Counted from the first letter of the stretch, positions 22,923-37,998 are shown. The stretch is 64,000 bases of DNA from Escherichia coli (GCF_044324875.1 NZ_CP172185.1); one strand, 5' to 3'. Numbers and translations are program-made. The notes: generated by a model not told the origin, from the sequence alone.

Positions 22923-23180
22923 ATGAGAGGCGATAAGATGAAAAGAGCCTACAAAGAAATCGCTAACGACATACTTCAGAATTATCACCTAACCCTTGCA
23001 AACGAGGGTGTCGCCTATGATGAGCAATCGTTCCGCGCAATGCAGGGTGGGATTCTTGGGCTGTATATCGCCGCCACAGCCAGCGGCGACCTCGAAGCGC
23101 TGGCAGAATTAAAGGTTATCTATCCGAAAGAACTTGGCGAAGACCTGATTAAACCCTATCTCATTGAGGAGCTGGCATGA
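22923..23180 (+). CDS. hypothetical early protein
   Basis: 85-aa ORF (alternative start MKRAYKEI at 22938). Confidence 0.45.
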   Translation: MRGDKMKRAYKEIANDILQNYHLTLANEGVAYDEQSFRAMQGGILGLYIAATASGDLEALAELKVIYPKELGEDLIKPYLIEELA

Positions 23181-25131: not shown

Positions 25132-25454
25132 GCAATCACCATGTACACACAAAAAAACCGCTTGCAACAACAAACCGGAACAGGGTACGCTTCCCCCGCA
25201 CCTCATAAAGCGGGTGCCGGGTTTCGCAGCCTGCTGACTAGCAAAGCGCACAACCGCGCCAGCGGTTTTTTTGTGCGTACTGTATTGCCACGTCTTTTTC
25301 GCATCAGAATTATGGTGGGGCGTACGGGGCCGACTTCGGTCGGGCCGGTTTCTTCGTTTGCCGGTGTTGAGAACCCCGTACGTCTCGCCACCCCGAGATT
25401 CTCAACTCTGGTTGGTGAGTATCCAAAAACTCACAAACGAAGAGGCCAAACACC

Positions 25455-26117: not shown

Positions 26118-28292
26118 ATGGAGTTCGTCAGAGACTGGCAAAAACCGCGCCCCGCTATCGGGCGCGAAGGCTTACCCGTACCTGAAACCGCACTGGATAC
26201 CATCCTGAAGTGTTACCGCGCGGACGAAGAGCGCGCCCTGAACGCTGAAGAGCAGGGTCATCCGCTTGCGGGCACAACCATCGGTAACGCGATCGACAAG
26301 TGGGAAGGCGCACAGGAGCGCCAGGAAGAGGCCATCACGCTCACACAGGAAGCGAAGAGACGCCCACCCACCCTCATTGAGGAAACCCTCAAAGAGCTGG
26401 ACACCCTGCCAAAGTGGTTGAGGCTGCCACTGATTAAGTACCTGAACTTCTTAAGGCGCAAACAGGAGGACGAACAGCAGAAAGGCAAGCGCGGCAAGGA
26501 CACCCGCAAATATGAGCGCTTCCTGAAAAACGGCATCCCCGCACGTCTTCGCCGTATTCGTGAGATTAACGCTCGCTTTGCACCGTTAAGTTTTCAGGCC
26601 GCTGCCATGCGCGAGAGTCTGGAAGAGTTAATCACACTGCCGAACCTGAGCCGTGAACGCATCCAGAAAATAGCCGTACTGCTTGCCAGCGCCGTTAAAA
26701 TGCATCTTGCCGACGCAATGGACAAGGCCCGCGAAATAACAGGGAACGACAAAGACGACAACCTGAACAACTGGCTGATTGCCTACCAGTATATTGGTCG
26801 CCGTGTCCTGAAGCTGGGGATCACCCCACCATACTGGAGCGCCCTTGAACTCCGTCCCGACCGCAGAAGCCCCCCGGACCTGACACTGGTACCGGGCGCT
26901 GTTTTGCGCCTGAACGACGCCGAATGGTGGAATAAAAAACTTCGCCAGATGCACGACGTCTGGCGTGAGGAACTTTTACGTGCAGCGGGCCTTGTATCCC
27001 GCCAGACCTCCATTTATGTGAGCCGGGAAGCGCTGGCAGACTTCCGCGAGAAACAGGCCCGTACCCGCGATTTTCTCAAAGCGCACGACGTGGAGAACGA
27101 AGACGGCGAACGCATCAGCCTGGAAGATATCTACTACGCCAGTACATCCAACCCGCATAACCGCCGCAACGAGATGATGGCGTGCGTCAAGGGAATGGAG
27201 CTTATCGCACAGGAACGTGGCGACGTGGCCTTCTTCGTCACGGTCACAGCCCCGTCTCGTTTTCACAGCGTCACCGACGCCGGTACCCTTAACCCGAAAT
27301 ACAAAGGCACAACAGTAAAAGACGCCAGCGACTATCTGGTTTATAACTTCTTCGCCTCCGCCCGCAAACTCATCAAAAAAGAGAAGCGGGGCTGGTACGG
27401 CATTCGCACCGTGGAGCCTCACCACGACGGCACGCCCCACTGGCACATGCTGGTATTCACAAGCCCCGAGAACGAAGCGCGCATCACGGAAATCATGTGC
27501 AATGCCGCCATCCGTGAAGACCGTGCAGAGCTGGGCGACGACATTACCCCGCGCTTCAAGTGCGAGAAGATAGACCCCGAAAAAGGTACGCCAACCAGCT
27601 ACATCGCCACCTACATCGGCAAAGGCATTGACGCCGCCGCATTCGGCGACACGGATCCCAAAACAGGCAAACCGCCCGTTGACCACGAAAGCGGAAAACC
27701 TATGGCGGACACCGTGGAAAACGCCGTCGCCTGGGCACGCCTGCATCGCATTCGCCAGTTCCAGTTCTTTGGCCTTCCCTCACGTCAGGTGTGGCGCGAG
27801 TTCCGCCGCCTTGCCGGACAAATGGCACGCAACCCGAAGGGGCCGCAGGCACTGACCAACCCCAAAGCCGACGCCCTCCTTGTTGCAGCCGATACGGGGT
27901 GTTTTGCCAGCTACATCATGCATCAGGGCGGTGTGCTCATTCCCCGCAGTGAATATCTGGCCCGCACGGCCTACGTCACCGCAGAAGAGCCGAACAACTA
28001 CGGCGAGTTCCCCGACCGTATTTACGGTGTACGGATGCCGGAACTGGGCGATGAGTTCACGTTATGTACCCACCCGGAAGAGTGGAAAATCGTCAGAAAG
28101 GAACCGGAACCAGACAACCGCACGGGCGAGGGTTTTGACCTTCAGGGCGACCCCGTCGCCCCTTGGACTCGTGGCAATAACTGTCACCCTGACGAAAAAA
28201 ACAACCAACAACAGCACACAAACAGAACAGTCAGAGTGGGCAAAACTGCCCCCCTTACCCCCATCGTCGGACGGTTTTGTGAGCTGGTTTAA
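26118..28292 (+). CDS. replication initiation endonuclease (P2 gpA-like rolling-circle Rep)
   Basis: 724-aa ORF with HxH metal motif (PHWHMLVF) and downstream Tyr-containing ...YIATYIGKG...; P2 gene order. Confidence 0.85.
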   Translation: MEFVRDWQKPRPAIGREGLPVPETALDTILKCYRADEERALNAEEQGHPLAGTTIGNAIDKWEGAQERQEEAITLTQEAKRRPPTLIEETLKELDTLPKWLRLPLIKYLNFLRRKQEDEQQKGKRGKDTRKYERFLKNGIPARLRRIREINARFAPLSFQAAAMRESLEELITLPNLSRERIQKIAVLLASAVKMHLADAMDKAREITGNDKDDNLNNWLIAYQYIGRRVLKLGITPPYWSALELRPDRRSPPDLTLVPGAVLRLNDAEWWNKKLRQMHDVWREELLRAAGLVSRQTSIYVSREALADFREKQARTRDFLKAHDVENEDGERISLEDIYYASTSNPHNRRNEMMACVKGMELIAQERGDVAFFVTVTAPSRFHSVTDAGTLNPKYKGTTVKDASDYLVYNFFASARKLIKKEKRGWYGIRTVEPHHDGTPHWHMLVFTSPENEARITEIMCNAAIREDRAELGDDITPRFKCEKIDPEKGTPTSYIATYIGKGIDAAAFGDTDPKTGKPPVDHESGKPMADTVENAVAWARLHRIRQFQFFGLPSRQVWREFRRLAGQMARNPKGPQALTNPKADALLVAADTGCFASYIMHQGGVLIPRSEYLARTAYVTAEEPNNYGEFPDRIYGVRMPELGDEFTLCTHPEEWKIVRKEPEPDNRTGEGFDLQGDPVAPWTRGNNCHPDEKNNQQQHTNRTVRVGKTAPLTPIVGRFCELV

Positions 28293-28329: not shown

Positions 28330-28608
28330 TTGCTCAAAAAACGCACCGAAGAGAGTCGCCAGAACGCCAGCGGCGGCACCGACACACCCACCGACACCAT
28401 TAACCTGGGCGTTGTGCTGCCGGAACTGCCGGAAATCGTGCAAGTCCGCCGCGATCTGGAAGCGCTGGGCGCGGACTTCCCCGAAGCAATGGCCCATTCC
28501 GTCTTTATGGGTGCCCGCGTTCGTCTGGGTGACGGTCGCACCGTTCACCGCGACGAGCAGACCGGGCGCATCACCGTCACCAGTCTGCAACCGGAGGCGA
28601 AACCATGA
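28330..28608 (+). CDS. small ORF after gpA (possible TTG start; alternatively ATG 28489)
   Basis: Open frame from gpA stop to 28608, stop overlaps next gene start; start codon unresolved. Confidence 0.3.
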   Translation: MLKKRTEESRQNASGGTDTPTDTINLGVVLPELPEIVQVRRDLEALGADFPEAMAHSVFMGARVRLGDGRTVHRDEQTGRITVTSLQPEAKP

Positions 28609-29015
28609 ACCGTTATCATTGTGTACTGCCGCGCCACTACTTCGGTCAGATTATGCGCTCGCGTATTCCGGCGGTCACGCTGCGAAACCTGAGCACGGTA
28701 CCGCAGCCGGGCGATGAGCTGGAAATCGCCGTAGCAGGCCCTGACCGTTCAGCCAGCTGCGTGACCGCCGACGTGCTGAACGCCGTGCCCGTAGGTGGTG
28801 ACTGGCTGGTTGCCATCCGCTTCCGCCAAGACCCGTTCGCACCTGAACCGCTCACCCCCGCAGGCCGCATCATGCAGAACTGGCGGGATGAAGGCGCGAA
28901 GGCGAACTGCGAAAAACTGATTAACAGGATTGCCACGACAAACCGACATGCCGCGCTGGCGCGCCGGATATACCCCGCAAAATCAACACAACCAACAGGA
29001 GTAAAAGGCCCATGA
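28605..29015 (+). CDS. hypothetical protein (accessory island gene 1)
   Basis: 136-aa ORF, translationally coupled (ATGA overlaps). Confidence 0.55.
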   Translation: MNRYHCVLPRHYFGQIMRSRIPAVTLRNLSTVPQPGDELEIAVAGPDRSASCVTADVLNAVPVGGDWLVAIRFRQDPFAPEPLTPAGRIMQNWRDEGAKANCEKLINRIATTNRHAALARRIYPAKSTQPTGVKGP

Positions 29016-29278
29016 AAAGAATCGCCGGAACTGACTACCAGGAGCTGCTTAAAGCGGTGGAAAACTACCGTTCAGCGCTGGTGTGGTGTGAGATTAAGCC
29101 CTGTGACCCGGGAGCAGTTAAGGATTGCAACCGGGCGCGTGAGGACATTCAGCGCGTAATTGGCTACCGCTATGTAGCAGCCATTATTGACCTTGTGAAT
29201 GAACTGGAGGAAGCAAAAGAGCGCATCGCAGAACTGGAAACCCAGAATAACCCCAACCAGCAGGAGCAGAAGCCATGA
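29012..29278 (+). CDS. hypothetical protein (accessory island gene 2)
   Basis: 88-aa ORF, overlapping start/stop. Confidence 0.5.
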   Translation: MKRIAGTDYQELLKAVENYRSALVWCEIKPCDPGAVKDCNRAREDIQRVIGYRYVAAIIDLVNELEEAKERIAELETQNNPNQQEQKP

Positions 29279-29856
29279 AAAAAAGAGACCTTAAAAAACA
29301 CCTCCGTAGTCAGATTGAATATTTTGAAGATAAGGCTGCAAAAACAGGGCTTTCCGGTAAAGAGAACATGAACTTCAGGGCACACCTCCTGACGTGGAGA
29401 ATACTTAATATCACGAGAGATGGACTTGAGCCGCTAGCCTACCTGATGGAAGATGGCGAGACCCTCATACAGGATCCCAATGTGGAAATGGAGAAGAAAG
29501 AGATGGACCTGCCGATAATCGGGCTGTTTGAGATCCCTGAACTAATAGGACGTTATGAACACGAAAACCGCCAGCTTGCCGCCTTTTTATCCGTGACAAT
29601 CGAACGACTGGAAGCCGTGAAACACGATATTCCGTTCGGTTTTGATGAGCGCACCGAGGGTGATTTGCTCAGCTTTCAGATTGCCCTGAACGTGCTCACC
29701 GCAGAGCCTTCTGCGTGGCTACGCCCGGAACGGCACCACAACACGTTCGCATTTACCGTAATTCCCTACGATGCCGCACAGGAAGAGGATAACTTCGAGA
29801 CCAGGCTTGTTCCCCTGTATCAGATTGCGGATTTCTATACGTTGATTCGCTGGTAA
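29275..29856 (+). CDS. hypothetical protein (accessory island gene 3)
   Basis: 193-aa ORF, overlapping start; followed by terminator. Confidence 0.55.
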   Translation: MKKRDLKKHLRSQIEYFEDKAAKTGLSGKENMNFRAHLLTWRILNITRDGLEPLAYLMEDGETLIQDPNVEMEKKEMDLPIIGLFEIPELIGRYEHENRQLAAFLSVTIERLEAVKHDIPFGFDERTEGDLLSFQIALNVLTAEPSAWLRPERHHNTFAFTVIPYDAAQEEDNFETRLVPLYQIADFYTLIRW

Positions 29857-29870
29857 TCCCCCACAGTAAA

Positions 29871-29895
29871 ACAGCCCGACCGGGCTGTTTTTTTA
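29871..29895 (+). terminator. intrinsic terminator (acagcccgaccgggctgt + T7)
   Basis: Seen in sequence after the 29275-29856 ORF. Confidence 0.6.
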
Positions 29896-29951
29896 TCTGA
29901 TATTTTTGATAACGTTGACCGGCTCATTAGCAAAAAAGCAAAGAGGAAAAC

Positions 29952-30338
29952 ATGAAAGCCCGTATCGGGATCATCCCGGAAAAAGCCCTGCGCCAGCACC
30001 TGATTGATATTGCCAGAGGGAAGCGAAAACCACAGCCCGACGAGCCAAAGGTATGGTTTTCATCCATCAATGCGGCAGGCCAGACGCTGAGCAATGAAAA
30101 TATCGCCCTTCTGCGTCTTATGAATGAGGAGAAGCCGCAGACCATGACCGCACTTGCGGAGTTATCCGGCAGAAAACTGAGCAACCTGTCTGTAACCCTG
30201 AAAATGCTGAGCAGCTACGGTTTTGTCAGTCTGGAAAAGAAAGGGAATACTGTACACCCGAAAGCACTTTTTACCGATTTTGAAATCATCGTTGATCCGT
30301 CCGTGGGTTCAGTACATCGCGCCACCGCCCGGCCCTGA
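29952..30338 (+). CDS. hypothetical protein, possible winged-helix DNA-binding
   Basis: 128-aa ORF with RBS GAGGAAAA; segment ...MTALAELSGRKLSNLSVTLKML... looks HTH-like. Confidence 0.45.
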   Translation: MKARIGIIPEKALRQHLIDIARGKRKPQPDEPKVWFSSINAAGQTLSNENIALLRLMNEEKPQTMTALAELSGRKLSNLSVTLKMLSSYGFVSLEKKGNTVHPKALFTDFEIIVDPSVGSVHRATARP

Positions 30339-30373: not shown

Positions 30374-30748
30374 TTATTCCAGAATCAGCTGTTCAGGTGT
30401 GCAGCCGTACAGTCTGGCAAGGCGCTCAATATTTGCCCTGCGCGGGCGTTCCGTTCTTTCGAATTCGGACACGGTAGCCTGCCTGATACCCAGCGCATCC
30501 GCCACCTGCTTTTGCGTCATTCCGCGATAGATTCGCCACGCCGCCTGCATTGTGCAGCCACGCTCCGAGAGAATGTTAACCACCTCGTTGGGATACAGCG
30601 TATCAGGCGATGCACACGGTTCGTTCTGGACGTCCTCGTAGAGTTCGTCAAGGTCGCTGTCTCCTGCCAGTTTTTCAAACAACGCCACTGGCAGAATGAC
30701 GGACACCCTGTTACCCGCACCGTCAGTAATAAACTGAATCTGACTCAT
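30374..30748 (-). CDS. XRE-family HTH protein, putative antitoxin/regulator
   Basis: 124-aa ORF; C-terminal ...MTQKQVADALGIRQATVSEFERTERPRRANIERLARLYGCTPEQL typical XRE HTH; strong RBS CAGGAGGGG. Confidence 0.6.
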   Translation of the reverse strand: MSQIQFITDGAGNRVSVILPVALFEKLAGDSDLDELYEDVQNEPCASPDTLYPNEVVNILSERGCTMQAAWRIYRGMTQKQVADALGIRQATVSEFERTERPRRANIERLARLYGCTPEQLILE

Positions 30749-30794
30749 TTACCCCTCCTGCTAAACATCGGTTTATTTTTTAATTTGCTGCCGG

Positions 30795-30821
30795 TGATAA
30801 AAAACGGCGGGTCGCCCCGCC
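30795..30821 (-). terminator. hairpin ggcggg-gcga-cccgcc + T6 immediately after the RelE-like stop
   Basis: Seen in sequence (reverse complement of 30795-30821). Confidence 0.45.
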
Positions 30822-31094
30822 TTAGTATGTTGTCGAGGTTCTCCGCTGAATACGGAGGATCCTGATAACCACTATCTGCCCTCCCTCAATCGTGAACCTG
30901 ACACGGTAATGATTTACCCTGAGTCTGTACTCCCCGCCCGAGTCAGTGAGCTTTTTAATATCCAGATTCTGGAACTTCGGATAGCCATAAAGCGCGTTAA
31001 CTTTCTCGCGTAAGGATTTCTGATCCCTCGCTGGCAAAACCCGTAAATCTTTGATTGCCCGAGGGGTCCACATGATTTCAGTCGTCATAAACAC
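30822..31094 (-). CDS. RelE/ParE-superfamily toxin-like protein
   Basis: 90-aa ORF; ...KKLTDSGGEYRLRVNHYRVRFTIEGGQIVVIRI... matches the RelE/ParE pattern (KxL..G...YRLRVGDYRV.Y). Confidence 0.6.
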   Translation of the reverse strand: MFMTTEIMWTPRAIKDLRVLPARDQKSLREKVNALYGYPKFQNLDIKKLTDSGGEYRLRVNHYRVRFTIEGGQIVVIRILRIQRRTSTTY

Positions 31095-31677
31095 ACCGGA
31101 AGCAAATTATTAAAGAGCCGTGCCCGCTGGCACACCTTAAATATAGGTTTTAACCCCTATATTGTCAAACAAAATCCCTATATCATGAAGTAAAAAAGCA
31201 CCTCCCGCGACCTCCCTTTCCGGTGCACGAAAGTGCACAAATTTGCACAATTTTTTTGAACGACTTTTTGCCCTTCCGGCCCGTGTGGCGTCTGGATCCG
31301 TCGGGGATCCGTGCGTGCACGAAAAAAGGCCTTTTTCTGCGCGCAGGTGACGGGGGAACAGCCCGCGTTTCAGGGGGTAAATAGCATTCCCTGAACGATG
31401 TTGCAGTGACACAACAGAATGGCTGTATTTCTCACGCTGAGCGTGAAAAAGACGTAAGGGCTTTTGATTTGATGGGGTGAAAGATAAGGCCGTCAAAATC
31501 GCACTGAGGCAGCGAGAATATGTCGTCAGAGTTGCGGGGTTGCGTAAGCATCCGCCCGGCGATGATGGCTACAGGGCTGGAGATGTTGTGAAATTATCTG
31601 AAGGAATAACCAGCTTGCAGGAGAACCCGGGCAAAGTCAGAATAGCGGCAGGCATCAACTCAAAAGAGGATAATGTC

Positions 31678-32181
31678 ATGAGCCACTTTAATGATTTATG
31701 CCAGATCAATCGTGAAGCTGAAGAAAAACGCGCTGAGGCAGCTCAAATTTTGCGGGATGAAGCGGCAAGGCTGATTGATTTCTATGAAGAATGGCTGGGG
31801 CTTCCATCCATGTACTGGGAAGACGATGATGGCGACCTGCACCGCTACGTGGAGACAGGCTTGCCATGTAAGACAGCGGCGGATTTTAGTCCTCTTTCAG
31901 TCCACAATATCGCATCTGCACCAGACAATATTTTCCGCATGGCCGTGCGAACCTGGGTTAAGTCATCTGACAGCAGCTACCCGGTAAGCGTGGTTATTGC
32001 ACTTGAATTATATTCAGTAGATGCGGAACGGGTGTCTCTGAGAGTCCGGGTGGAAGACGATATTTCTGTTCGCGTATTTATCAATAAACCCAGCGAAGAA
32101 GCCTGGGGCGATGTTGTTATGCACATGAAAAAGCACATCGCTAATCACCTGAAAAAGCGAGCGCCATCAGCACTTCGTTAA
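31678..32181 (+). CDS. hypothetical protein adjacent to portal gene
   Basis: 168-aa ORF from ATG 31678 with RBS AAGAGGA (in-frame GTG 31477 would give 234 aa); followed by hairpin. Confidence 0.5.
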   Translation: MSHFNDLCQINREAEEKRAEAAQILRDEAARLIDFYEEWLGLPSMYWEDDDGDLHRYVETGLPCKTAADFSPLSVHNIASAPDNIFRMAVRTWVKSSDSSYPVSVVIALELYSVDAERVSLRVRVEDDISVRVFINKPSEEAWGDVVMHMKKHIANHLKKRAPSALR

Positions 32182-32197
32182 GCAGAGCTGGAGAGTC

Positions 32198-32221
32198 GGG
32201 GCATAAATTTTTTATGCCCCG
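32198..32221. terminator. palindromic hairpin ggggcataaattttttatgcccc between convergent ORF and portal gene
   Basis: Seen in sequence. Confidence 0.5.
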
Positions 32222-32247
32222 GCGAAGCAGCAGACAAGCGAAGCGCG

Positions 32248-33303
32248 TCAGGATATGGGCTGGGTGTCTAACAGTGCGTAAGGGTTAAAACGGATCACCT
32301 CTTCGCCCAGCCAGTCGTTGACGTGTTTCATTGCTTCCATGACGGGCATCAGTTCGTTAATGGCAAACACACGGGCTGCCTTCTCCACATCCCCGAATGA
32401 CCCCTTCTCACCCGGCATGGCCCCCATCAGCTGCGGCGGTACACGGTGCACGGACAGCACATCATCACGCGATGCAGCCTTGACGTTCATGAACTCATCC
32501 TTTGCGGTGATTTGCTGAAACGGCAAAATCTGTACGCCATCCTTACCACCTCCCGCCGCGTGGATGAGCAGATTTTTAAACGCCCCGCCACCACGCGCGC
32601 TTTGCAGTGTTTCCCGCAGTTTTTCCATGCTTTCACGGTCAACCTGCGCCGCACCGATGTAGACAATACAGCCCGCGTGTGAGCCGTTATCGTAGTAGAG
32701 CTTGCGGAAGATATCGGCGGAATGTGACAGGCTGGCAGACAGCAGGCCGCCCAGGTAATCCGGCATCCCGTAAATCTCCTGGTTGATATCAGGATTCATC
32801 AGGTGGCATATCGTCCCCTCACGAAAGCGGTACTCTTCCTGTCCTTCCTGTATATACCACCATGATTTCATATCGCTGCCACGTCGCATGTATTTCGCCA
32901 GCGCCCGGCGCAGGGCCAGCGGTTCGCCAAGCATGTTGCGCCGCAGCTCAAGACAGGCATTACCGAACACAAACCAGTCCATCGCCACCCCGGCGAACTC
33001 CTGGCGGGACAGCAGAGGATGTGGAATATAGCAGCCCAGCAGCACATTACGTTTGAAGCTGAGCGCCGACTGGTGCCAGGACGTCTGGCGGGCAGCCCGT
33101 GCCAGTCCGTACCAGTCAACGGGCGTTTCAAACCACCGCCCGTTGTCGGCGCAGTACATGCTGTCCAGCAGGTCGGCCCCTGACAGCCGGTAAGGTCCTT
33201 CAAACGTGAAGGCACTCAGTGTCGGGTCGCTTCGCAGGGAATCCGCAAGGCTGCCCTGCGCTGCGCGGGCGTTCGTACGTCGTTGTTTATTTTTTCTGCT
33301 CAT
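32248..33303 (-). CDS. portal protein (P2 gpQ-like)
   Basis: 351-aa ORF; position and orientation as P2 Q, overlapping terminase gene. Confidence 0.85.
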   Translation of the reverse strand: MSRKNKQRRTNARAAQGSLADSLRSDPTLSAFTFEGPYRLSGADLLDSMYCADNGRWFETPVDWYGLARAARQTSWHQSALSFKRNVLLGCYIPHPLLSRQEFAGVAMDWFVFGNACLELRRNMLGEPLALRRALAKYMRRGSDMKSWWYIQEGQEEYRFREGTICHLMNPDINQEIYGMPDYLGGLLSASLSHSADIFRKLYYDNGSHAGCIVYIGAAQVDRESMEKLRETLQSARGGGAFKNLLIHAAGGGKDGVQILPFQQITAKDEFMNVKAASRDDVLSVHRVPPQLMGAMPGEKGSFGDVEKAARVFAINELMPVMEAMKHVNDWLGEEVIRFNPYALLDTQPIS

Positions 33304-35054
33304 CAGAACTCCGTAACACTGAAGGGGGCGGCATCATGTTCACCGCCGACAGGTTCGTTGATAACGGCCAGCATGGTGGCCCATGCAAGATCGCCATGGC
33401 TTACGCCTCTTGCGCGATCTGTTTCGTAGGTGATAAATCCGGCCTGCGTTTTTGTTTTGCGTACCGCGTTAAAGGCGCTCACCAGTTCGCGCTCGCTGCG
33501 GTCGTACTCCCACCGCCCGGCGCGCATGAGCTGCAGCATCTTCAGAACCAGCGTGCGCTTTGATGACAGGGTGAAGGTGTAGGGAATGGCTGCCGGAAAA
33601 AAGCGCTTCACAATCTGATACACCGCATCCCCGTGACCGCCGGTTACGTCAATACCGATATGCTCAACGTTATAGCGAAAGGTGAACTCTTCAATCACCT
33701 TCGCCTGCGCCTCAAACTCCAGCCCCTGCACCCGCCGCGTCTCCACGGTGCGAAAACGCCCGCCCGGTACGGCTGGCGGCACCACCACGACAACCGCCCC
33801 GCTGTCACCGTTCCCGCTACTGCCGTTGGCGTCGTACCCAATCCACACAGGGCGGTTCCCCATCGGACGCGGTGCAAACGGCTTCCAGTCCGGCCACTCG
33901 TCGTATCCGTCAACACCGCAGCCAATCAGGATATTCAGGTTAAATGCCGATTCCCCTTCGCGAGCAAATTCACACATGTAGAGATTGCGGAACTCGTCTT
34001 CAGTGTTATTGCGCCGGATTTTGTCAATGTTGGTTAACGTCCATCCCTGACTGACCACATCTTCCAGCGTCACAATTTGCCGCCAGATATAGTCAGGACA
34101 GATAAGGCCGTTATGAAGCGCATTCCAGCTCACATCAAAATGCTGACGTTTATGAGTACGAAGCCCTTCATTCCAGTGATCGCCGTTCCAGTATGCATAC
34201 GCCTCATGTGTTTCACTTGATGGCGTGGAAAAATAGGTACACCGCAAACCATCCAGCGTTGCCATAGCAGCAGCCACCTTGCGCAGCTCTGCGAAACGCC
34301 CCGTCCAGAAAAACTCATCAAAATACAGATTCCCTGTGTACGCTTGCGCGGTGGCCGCAGAAGTGCCGAGAAAATGCAGCTCTGCACCGTTGGAGAGGAT
34401 GACTTTATCGCCCCCTTTCAGTTCCACATCAACTTCAGATGCAGCCTTCTGAATAATGCTTTTAAACTGGAGCGCCTGACGACGAGACGCAGACAAAAAA
34501 ATCTGGTTACGCTGGTAAGGTTGTGCCACATCGTCACGCAGCGCCATCAGCAGCGCTTCCTGCGCAAAATACCAGGTCGCCCCAATCTGGCGGGATTTCA
34601 GGATCATCCTGTCAGTAATTCCGGCACGCTCACAGGCACCGATAGCATCAAGCCATTTGCGCTGGTGTCCGGCCAGCCTGTCGGTAATTTTTTCCCGCAG
34701 CGCCGCGATCTGTTCCGGCGTGAAATGATTTTTGCGTTTTTTCGCCCGGCCTTTCTTTCCTGTTGCCGTCTCATCCGGCAGACCGTCATGCAGCTTTTTA
34801 AGCTGACGGGTCAGCAAATCAATTTCCTTAAAGTCCCCGCCTGTTTTATTCTGTTTTTCCGTGAGCTGAATGAGTCGCGCATCCATGGACTGCGTGACAC
34901 GCTGAACCGGGGGCGTCTCATCCCACTGGTCGCGTTTTTTCCACGAATGGATCGTGTTCTGGTTGATACCCATAAGGCGGGAAATTTCCGCAACAGGGTA
35001 ACCCTGCCAGTACAGCTGGCGTGCCCGCTGGCGAACAAATGTATCCTGAATCAT
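33303..35054 (-). CDS. terminase large (ATPase) subunit (P2 gpP-like)
   Basis: 583-aa ORF downstream of shared divergent late promoter region; P2 order. Confidence 0.85.
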   Translation of the reverse strand: MIQDTFVRQRARQLYWQGYPVAEISRLMGINQNTIHSWKKRDQWDETPPVQRVTQSMDARLIQLTEKQNKTGGDFKEIDLLTRQLKKLHDGLPDETATGKKGRAKKRKNHFTPEQIAALREKITDRLAGHQRKWLDAIGACERAGITDRMILKSRQIGATWYFAQEALLMALRDDVAQPYQRNQIFLSASRRQALQFKSIIQKAASEVDVELKGGDKVILSNGAELHFLGTSAATAQAYTGNLYFDEFFWTGRFAELRKVAAAMATLDGLRCTYFSTPSSETHEAYAYWNGDHWNEGLRTHKRQHFDVSWNALHNGLICPDYIWRQIVTLEDVVSQGWTLTNIDKIRRNNTEDEFRNLYMCEFAREGESAFNLNILIGCGVDGYDEWPDWKPFAPRPMGNRPVWIGYDANGSSGNGDSGAVVVVVPPAVPGGRFRTVETRRVQGLEFEAQAKVIEEFTFRYNVEHIGIDVTGGHGDAVYQIVKRFFPAAIPYTFTLSSKRTLVLKMLQLMRAGRWEYDRSERELVSAFNAVRKTKTQAGFITYETDRARGVSHGDLAWATMLAVINEPVGGEHDAAPFSVTEF

Positions 35055-37215: not shown

Positions 37216-37998
37216 ATGCTGACACCGGCACAGGCTCATTTCCAGCGCGTGATGGCTTTACGGGCAGGAACGGCAGCAGAAAACGAGGATATCGTGGCCC
37301 GCACGGCTCATGAGCAGGTCCTTCACCGTCTGCGCCTGGCACAGCAACGCATAAAGGGCGTCCAGGCAAAAGCGGCAAAGGCCGCGCTCAAGCGTGAAAT
37401 GCTGCCGGGTTTTGCAGGCTGGATAGACGGCACGCTGGAAGCCGACGGCGGACAGCAGGATGAGGTGATAGCCACACTCATGGTGTGGGCCGTGGACTGT
37501 GGCGACCTGGCGCTTGCACTGCGCATCGGGGATTATGTGGTTCGCCACAACCTCACGATGCCTGACAACTTCGGGCGTACGGCAGCCACGGTACTGACCG
37601 AGGAAATCTGCAACCCTGTTCTGACACAGGCCGGAACGGATGCACACGCCGATTTGTCCGGCTACATCGAACCGCTGGACACCCTCTGGCAAATTGTCGC
37701 GAACCGGGACATGCCCGATGAGGTCCGCGCCAAGCTGTGCAAGGCATGCGCCTTTGCCCGTCGTGGCCTGACCGATGCCGACAGCATGGCGGTGAGTCTG
37801 AAGCTGTTCCGTGAGGCAATGCACCTTAACCCGAATGCGGGGGTAAAACGTGAGATTGCCACGCTTTCACGGGCCCTGAAAAAGGCCGGACAGGATGAAG
37901 CCGCTGCCGCACAGGAGCCTGCGGCACAGAAAGATACAACCAGAGAACAGACCACGACGCCGAAGGCGAAAGCGAAAGCGAAGGCGAAACGTGGTTAA
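37216..37998 (+). CDS. terminase endonuclease/small subunit (P2 gpM-like)
   Basis: 260-aa ORF with C-terminal KAKAKAKAK tail; P2 order. Confidence 0.8.
   Translation: MLTPAQAHFQRVMALRAGTAAENEDIVARTAHEQVLHRLRLAQQRIKGVQAKAAKAALKREMLPGFAGWIDGTLEADGGQQDEVIATLMVWAVDCGDLALALRIGDYVVRHNLTMPDNFGRTAATVLTEEICNPVLTQAGTDAHADLSGYIEPLDTLWQIVANRDMPDEVRAKLCKACAFARRGLTDADSMAVSLKLFREAMHLNPNAGVKREIATLSRALKKAGQDEAAAAQEPAAQKDTTREQTTTPKAKAKAKAKRG

Follow-up and report, generated by a model that had tools for sequence, protein, structure and literature searches.

In phages of the P2 family, the cohesive-end site (cos) is sited between gpA and the portal gene (PMC9122126), and the accessory region beside it is a known defence hotspot (PMC9122126; bioRxiv 10.64898/2026.02.27.708500). 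The cos sites of P2, 186 and P4 carry 19-nt 5′ cohesive ends, GGCGAGGCGGGGAAAGCAC / GGCGTGGCGGGGAAAGCAT (Ziermann & Calendar 1990, as cited in PMC9122126, PMC3931495 and PMC9594776), and P4-type satellites have only cos in common with their helpers (PMC9122126). For phages of the P88 type, a cos site is expected and, by analogy, would sit and work like those of P2, 186 and P4; in the searchable literature, the papers that mention both P88 and cos do not map the P88 ends. Here we examine a prophage of this type in a 64-kb stretch of Escherichia coli DNA (the window) and propose that positions 31224–31388 are, very probably, its cos site. The initial annotation had suggested that the repeat-rich region 31095–31677 could hold cos and signals for packaging, or else operators of the accessory genes that flank it. 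The sequence points to both, in different parts of the region: a cos-like architecture at 31224–31388, and a promoter with operator-like repeats at about 31106–31190.

Gene annotation of the window identifies a P2-family prophage, which is P88-like (Xuanwuvirus, Peduoviridae), its closest phages being P88 and its relatives of the genera Xuanwuvirus and Gemsvirus (Peduoviridae) and Citrobacter phiSM. Genes for scaffold, capsid and small terminase follow that of the large terminase, and the same element encodes a cognate P2-type terminase of which both subunits are full length (Table 1). Set against the P88-like phages, the region 31095–31677 falls into three parts: 31095–31223, which is not shared with the nearest phages (P88 and relatives); the block at 31224–31388; and a right arm (31365–31601) with an insert. 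The segment 31224–31601 is 85–90% identical to the P88-like phages, in which it directly adjoins the portal gene, and homology picks up again at the hairpin 32197–32221. Of 5426 complete E. coli genomes, 1150 have matches to the conserved block and the portal-proximal DNA, and nine have the full arrangement of the window.

Table 1 Features of the predicted cos region and its gene context (window coordinates)
Feature	Coordinates	Strand	Details
Replication endonuclease (gpA-like)	26118–28292		
HTH (Xre-type) antitoxin/regulator	30374–30748	minus	3′ of toxin; Pfam HTH_3 (PF01381) E = 5.6e-11; PHROG 7241 transcriptional regulator
RelE/ParE-family toxin	30822–31094	minus	First gene of operon; Pfam PF05016 ParE_toxin E = 3.8e-9
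Sigma-70-type promoter	31140–31168	minus	Faces toxin; −35 TTGACA 31168–31163, 17-nt spacer, −10 TATATT 31145–31140
Operator-like repeats	31141–31183		CCTATAT/ATATAGG copies overlapping toxin promoter
Predicted cos block	31224–31388	plus	Left arm, cohesive-end core and ~24 nt to the right
Distal boxes 1–3	31224–31248	plus	TGCAC at 31224, 31234 and 31244; exact 10-bp spacing, then T7 run
Direct repeat GGATCCGT-N3-GGATCCGT	31294–31312	plus	Unique in window, 0 expected
Proximal box 4, TGCACGAAAAA	31316–31326	plus	30 nt ahead of core
Invariant GCGCGCA+GGTGACGGGGGAACAGCCC	31339–31364	plus	Candidate cohesive-end core
P88-type right arm, conserved noncoding	31365–31601	plus	G runs; TTCAGGG...CCCTGAA inverted repeat; TCACGCT-G-AGCGTGA palindrome
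Insertion	31602–32182	plus	581 bp versus 10 nt in P88; carries ORF 31678–32181
Perfect 11-bp hairpin CGGGGCATAAA-TTT-TTTATGCCCCG	32197–32221		27 nt downstream of portal stop codon
Portal gene, P2 gpQ homologue	32248–33303	minus	
Large terminase, P2 gpP homologue	33303–35054	minus	46% identity, full length
Small terminase, P2 gpM homologue	37216–37992	plus	37% identity, full length

Reading the sequence from 30700 to 32500 bore out the initial description of the region: all three repeats lie where they had been placed, there are several G-rich runs, and no convincing ORF is present. ORFs at 31137–31496 (minus strand) and 31223–31384 (plus strand) are frameshifted in about 58–59 of 65 relatives, and a frame beginning at 31477 is open in 57 of the 65 but shows no excess of variation at third codon positions; the small ORFs inside the region were thus rejected as genes or considered unsupported.

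The block begins with a triple array, TGCAC-N5-TGCAC-N5-TGCAC, that is unique in the window (0.02 expected by chance) and includes tgcacaaatttgcacaa at 31234–31250. These distal boxes are near-invariant in more than 100 unique relatives, and box 4 is kept across lineages. The GGATCCGT repeat is specific to the P88-type left arm, where it takes the place of the GGCGCGGTCTGAG found in P4 and in T5282H-type lineages. No convincing match to the IHF consensus was seen by eye in the left arm. Among 121 loci picked on the distal box alone, 114 have the exact 19-mer GGTGACGGGGGAACAGCCC 113–115 nt downstream. The bases bordering the invariant block vary by lineage on both sides, being TTTTTCT, AAATGTC or GTTTGTC to the left and GCGTTTC, ACGCGAC or CCGCAAC to the right.

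This layout closely resembles that of the described P2-family sites. In the P2, 186 and P4 records, the annotated cut is preceded by GTGCATnnnnTTGCAT, starting at −112, and by TGCATTAAAACC, starting at −29; in the window, GTGCACaaatTTGCAC starts at −113 and TGCACGAAAA at −30 from the 19-mer, so that the boxes are 83 nt apart in all four. Like these sites, the window has a TGCA-pyrimidine pair 112–113 nt before the (predicted) cut, a single box with an A run 29–30 nt before it, and a G-rich 19-mer that starts with GG-pyrimidine-GA and ends with GC-N-pyrimidine. Because we wished to avoid reliance on a forced alignment, every position of the window on both strands (128,000) was scored in a composite scan for strict P2/186/P4 consensus motifs and their spacing, with ±2 nt allowed. 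Position 31346(+) ranked first, scoring 32 of 44, as against 28 for the next independent site and 29 for the highest score in 200 composition-preserving shuffles. When run as a control on P88, Enterobacter phage phiT5282H, two Klebsiella phages, a satellite-like element and the closest E. coli genome, the scan each time chose the core equivalent to that of the window.

Architecture and alignability part company here. Alignment to P2-family cos regions had been suggested as a check, and the box layout does match P2, 186 and P4; profile searches with nhmmer, on the other hand, detected no homology to the ~55-bp P2/P4/186 cos core in either direction. The P2/186/P4 profile found nothing at 31224–31388 (its best match, E = 0.04, lies at 23175), and the P88-type profile, searched with 3000 shuffles, had no match at the P2/186/P4 junctions. 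A MAFFT alignment of the block with the P2/186/P4 cos is a forced alignment, and we claim no homology from it because the profile searches are empty at the site; what supports cos is the architecture of the block, its position, the constraint on it and its portability rather than alignment statistics. Only 13 of the 19 positions of the 19-mer agree with the P2/186 consensus, and nowhere in the window does the P2 19-mer find a match with three or fewer mismatches, in keeping with the failure of the initial annotation to recognize a P2 or 186 cohesive end.

The position is that of a P2-family cos. The block lies between the gpA side and the 3′ end of the portal gene, and no other noncoding DNA between the variable cargo and that gene is conserved; in 111 of 120 IMG/VR loci, the portal gene is 199–937 nt to the right of the 19-mer. 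It is scarcely plausible that the whole stretch is merely regulatory and that cos lies elsewhere, for example beside the portal gene at 32182–32247, the alternative site that the initial annotation had named. Such a reading could draw on the strong promoter and clustered repeats at 31106–31190 and on the P2 cos, which is only 187 nt from the portal stop codon as against 884 nt for the window core. The extra distance is accounted for, however, by the 581-bp insertion, which is missing from most relatives; in these, core and portal are 250–313 nt apart. Moreover, 32183–32247 is a conserved hairpin region that is not among the top-scoring positions of the scan, and the block at 31224–31388 is kept whatever the cargo and is shared with satellite-like elements.

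Constraint on the block is sharply bounded at its left. Conservation starts at 31224 in more than 100 unique IMG/VR sequences, with unrelated cargo beyond that point, and the block is conserved irrespective of the neighbouring cargo. Since variable cargo begins exactly at this edge, and since cos ends have been speculated to favour exchange (Rousset et al., PMC9122126), the block could be conceived as chiefly a homology anchor for the exchange of hotspot cargo rather than a packaging signal. We consider this very improbable, as it leaves unexplained the box architecture common to the block and the annotated cos sites; if the block does act as an anchor, this is better understood as a by-product of its being cos. 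Recombination exactly at cos was considered and rejected: the left and right flanks co-vary by lineage, and there is accordingly no sign of breakpoints at the core.

The same conservation bears on whether the block is the inactive relic of a cos in a defective prophage. The prophage is known here from sequence alone, which would accommodate a relic, but the four boxes are undamaged, as is the 26-nt invariant block, and all match exactly the consensus drawn from more than 100 loci; the portal gene and both terminase genes are full length, and the same block is present in isolated phages such as P88, vB_EcoM-569R5 and PhiR44_2. A relic is therefore improbable, and we favour a cos that is still intact.

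Within the block, the 19-nt 5′ cohesive end probably corresponds to 31346–31364, GGTGACGGGGGAACAGCCC, an assignment that we make with moderate confidence and with an uncertainty of a few nucleotides in the predicted nick positions, because the distance from box to core varies by 1–2 nt between lineages. By analogy with P2, 186 and P4, the terminase formed by the gpM and gpP homologues would recognize the left arm, with the three TGCAC boxes one helical turn apart and the fourth box, 30 nt from the cut, as its putative recognition sites. It would then nick both strands, in a staggered manner, around GCGCGCA|GGTGACGGGGGAACAGCCC|, leaving 19-nt 5′ cohesive ends. After such a cut, the accessory hotspot with its toxin–antitoxin pair would be placed at one end of the virion DNA, and the right arm, the inserted ORF and the portal gene at the opposite end.

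Sequence records offer weak physical hints of a cos at this place. Two metagenome contigs of genome length, one of 32.5 kb and one of 31.8 kb with 62x coverage, terminate 3 and 22 nt beyond the core, for which a rough, post hoc estimate gives a chance expectation of ~0.06–0.08 among long contigs; no phage record or IMG/VR contig has an end at exactly the predicted nick positions. The other hint comes from deletions of 6–7 nt within the 19-mer in the phages Chuche and P88_4B11, which prophage-derived records do not have, bar small differences in two low-quality ones. They may have arisen in assembly at the physical ends, or they may be variants that are tolerated. The environmental isolate Chuche (PP925824, 601–647) reads GGTGACGGG-------CCC, and P88_4B11 (NC_049391, 65–113) has a different lesion, GGTGACGGGGGGACAG-------. 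Apparent record ends at the core were rejected as the boundaries of sequence chunks.

Beyond the features already described, the window shares with the P2, 186 and P4 systems a conservation that is confined to the left arm, the core and a few nucleotides beyond, the association with P2-type small and large terminase genes, and a block that is common to satellites; with the phages P2 and 186 it also shares G-rich DNA to the right of the cut. It differs from them in its boxes, which are TGCAC in all four copies rather than TGCAT, in 6 of the 19 core positions as compared with P2 and 186, in the placing of a GCGCGC element to the left of the core rather than to the right as in P2, 186 and P4, and in having no profile-alignable match to the 55-bp P2/P4 core. 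The cos of phage lambda (cosQ–cosN–cosB) consists of a nicking site flanked by terminase recognition elements and gives 5′ cohesive ends (PMC7617512). Its likeness to the window is one of general logic only, with no similarity of sequence or layout: the lambda overhang is 12 nt as against the predicted 19 nt, and the small-terminase sites of lambda (cosB) are on the side packaged first, whereas the conserved boxes of the window are on the hotspot side.

The boxes themselves invite a different assignment, as a terminator or insulator that keeps hotspot transcription from crossing cos, or as sites for some other protein. A terminator scan flags 31233–31248, where a GTGCAC-N6-GTGCAC hairpin is followed by the T7 run; the first two TGCAT boxes of P4 lie in a 9-bp inverted repeat, the stem of a terminator-like hairpin, followed by T residues directly after psu; and the boxes of P2 adjoin the old promoter. 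The hairpin stem in the window has only five pairs, however, and the boxes of P2 and 186 are without a T run. The fixed distance of −112/−113 to the cut in P2, 186, P4 and the P88 type fits packaging better, as do the joint change from T to C in all four boxes and the retention of the boxes in satellites at 62% Psu identity. We therefore regard a role other than packaging as unlikely to be what the boxes are for, while noting that terminator and packaging roles are compatible with each other.

Satellites provide an independent view of the packaging signal. Across 80 sampled P4-like elements that encode Psu, the left arm is retained in full, distal TGCAT pair included, even where Psu identity has fallen to 62%, and everything to the right of the core is variable. 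The GGTGCAT-N4-TTGCAT pair stands at a fixed −112 from the cut in P2, 186, P4 and the 80 P4-like satellites, and so falls outside the '55-bp conserved cos' quoted in the literature. This suggests that the distal box pair, although it lies beyond those often-quoted 55 bp, is one of the conserved elements of the signal. The core is of the P2/186 type in all 80 of these elements and of the P88 type in none.

The P88-type block is instead carried by five satellite-like elements, L268 (the same as L129), L270, L271, L274 and L277, with predicted regions of 8.5–27 kb (8.5–15 kb in four of them) and with no portal or large terminase gene detected in their available DNA. When L268, L270, L274 and L277 are compared with the whole 64-kb window, 31224–31388 is shared at 82% identity, and beyond the block they share with the window only an integrase fragment and a 39-nt site. 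The block is thus portable, being carried by elements in which no large terminase gene was detected, and its sharing delimits the functional unit independently. The extent of the sharing parallels that between P2 and P4, in which identity runs from the distal boxes to a few nucleotides past the core.

Several further features of these elements were noted. The family encodes one or more integrases, an 897-aa primase, a 236-aa protein and a P2-family capsid-like protein, and three of the five elements have the core variant GGTGACGGGGGAACAGCAC. In L129/L268 (IMGVR_UViG_2711768167_000011, 15,286 nt), the primase belongs to PHROG 1139, a repressor-like protein and a MazF toxin are also encoded, and the capsid-like protein is 34% identical to the gpN of the window; its ORF has an apparent N-terminal extension of ~165 aa, possibly from an over-extended TTG start. 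The 39-nt site, cccccgcacctcataaagcgggtgccgggtttcgcagcc, lies at 25195–25233 of the window, contains a GCACC...GGTGC inverted repeat and is 90–97% identical between the prophage and the satellite-like elements. It is intergenic, flanked by genes for an HTH repressor-like protein and a 'derepression protein', and might be a regulatory site common to both, allowing the satellite to sense its helper.

The right arm is conserved among P88-like phages. In other lineages that share the left arm and core, its place is taken by unrelated sequence that is also G-rich. The 150 nt to the right of 31364 have a G–C skew of +0.25, as in P2, 186 and the other lineages, and P4 is without such a skew. Given this variation by lineage and the lack of the skew in P4, packaging is unlikely to require the right arm. 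The ORF carried by the insertion encodes a 167-aa protein of PHROG 5091 (residues 1–166 aligned to profile positions 2–163 of 164), preceded by the Shine–Dalgarno sequence AAGAGG and with no match in Pfam or PADLOC. The RefSeq start at 31588, 90 nt too early, was rejected in favour of the ATG at 31678 on the basis of the PHROG 5091 alignment. Of 111 IMG/VR loci, 21 have an insert of similar size between cos and the portal gene, and three of these 21 encode the same protein.

The hairpin downstream of the portal gene occupies the place of the P2 tQ terminator; it is without a T tail and was not called as a terminator. An Rfam scan of 30500–32500 gave a single, sub-threshold match, to gyrA RNA, on this hairpin, which we treated as chance. 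In four genomes with a portal of the phiT5282H type (L377, L382, L384 and L385), the interval between portal and hotspot contains an IS3-family transposase (HTH_Tnp_1 + rve) ~700 nt downstream of the portal gene, and this transposase may disrupt or displace cos.

The 19-mer and its reverse complement were not found in the searchable literature, and the version of cos described here, with its TGCAC boxes, six changes in the 19-nt core and no detectable homology to the 55-bp core, is likewise not described there. We tentatively propose, as a possibility that falls somewhat short of even odds, that the P88-type cos is a separate packaging-specificity class in the P2 family, in which all four boxes were switched together from TGCAT to TGCAC, 6 of 19 overhang bases differ, and the site is unused by Psu-type satellites (0/80) and used by an apparently undescribed satellite-like family. 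The box sequence, TGCAT or TGCAC, may set the compatibility of helper and satellite; if the P88-type cos is indeed a separate class, the range of satellites that a P2-family helper can mobilize would be set by the cos type. A P88-like cos would also fix the true genome ends for the annotation of this type of prophage, mark the right-hand boundary of a known defence and accessory hotspot, and offer a candidate packaging signal of ~165 bp for the design of cosmids or transducing particles with P88-like helpers.

The leftmost 130 bp of the region (31095–31223) is outside cos and belongs with the cargo of the gpA–portal hotspot, here a toxin–antitoxin pair. The toxin is also assigned to PHROG 1213 (RelE-like toxin) and is labelled in RefSeq as a type II TA RelE family toxin. 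A RelE/ParE-fold toxin followed by an HTH antitoxin in one operon is the arrangement of a HigBA-like type II system, and the module shares with HigBA and RelE–Xre type II operons the toxin-first order, the toxin fold, the HTH antitoxin and a strong promoter with overlapping inverted repeats. It differs from them in its rarity: the segment 30340–31223 travels as a single unit and is found in only 9 of 5426 E. coli genomes.

The toxin promoter has 11 of 12 consensus matches and is the best promoter-like site within 30700–32400. On the minus strand, an ATATAGG-N8-CCTATAT inverted repeat lies between −35 and −10 and overlaps the −10 element, and a third copy of ATATAGG stands just upstream of −35. 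The CCTATAT sites, at 31141–31147 (minus strand), 31156–31162 and 31177–31183, are the only ones in the 64 kb on both strands; their number is at chance level (3 versus 2.6 expected), but their clustering within 43 nt exceeds chance. These observations support the assignment of ~31106–31190 as the putative promoter and operator-like region of the toxin–antitoxin pair. The promoter is presumably autoregulated through the CCTATAT/ATATAGG repeats, to which the antitoxin would bind. Toxin–antitoxin homologues that are ~40% identical have different upstream repeats and a similar 5′ leader.

Between gpA and the toxin–antitoxin pair, the cargo at 28605–30338 comprises three small ORFs with no Pfam match (PHROGs 14984 and 16519, and a weak 660) and, at 29952–30338, a winged-helix protein of the HVO_A0114 family. 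No PADLOC system was matched in this segment, which is possibly an uncharacterised hotspot system.
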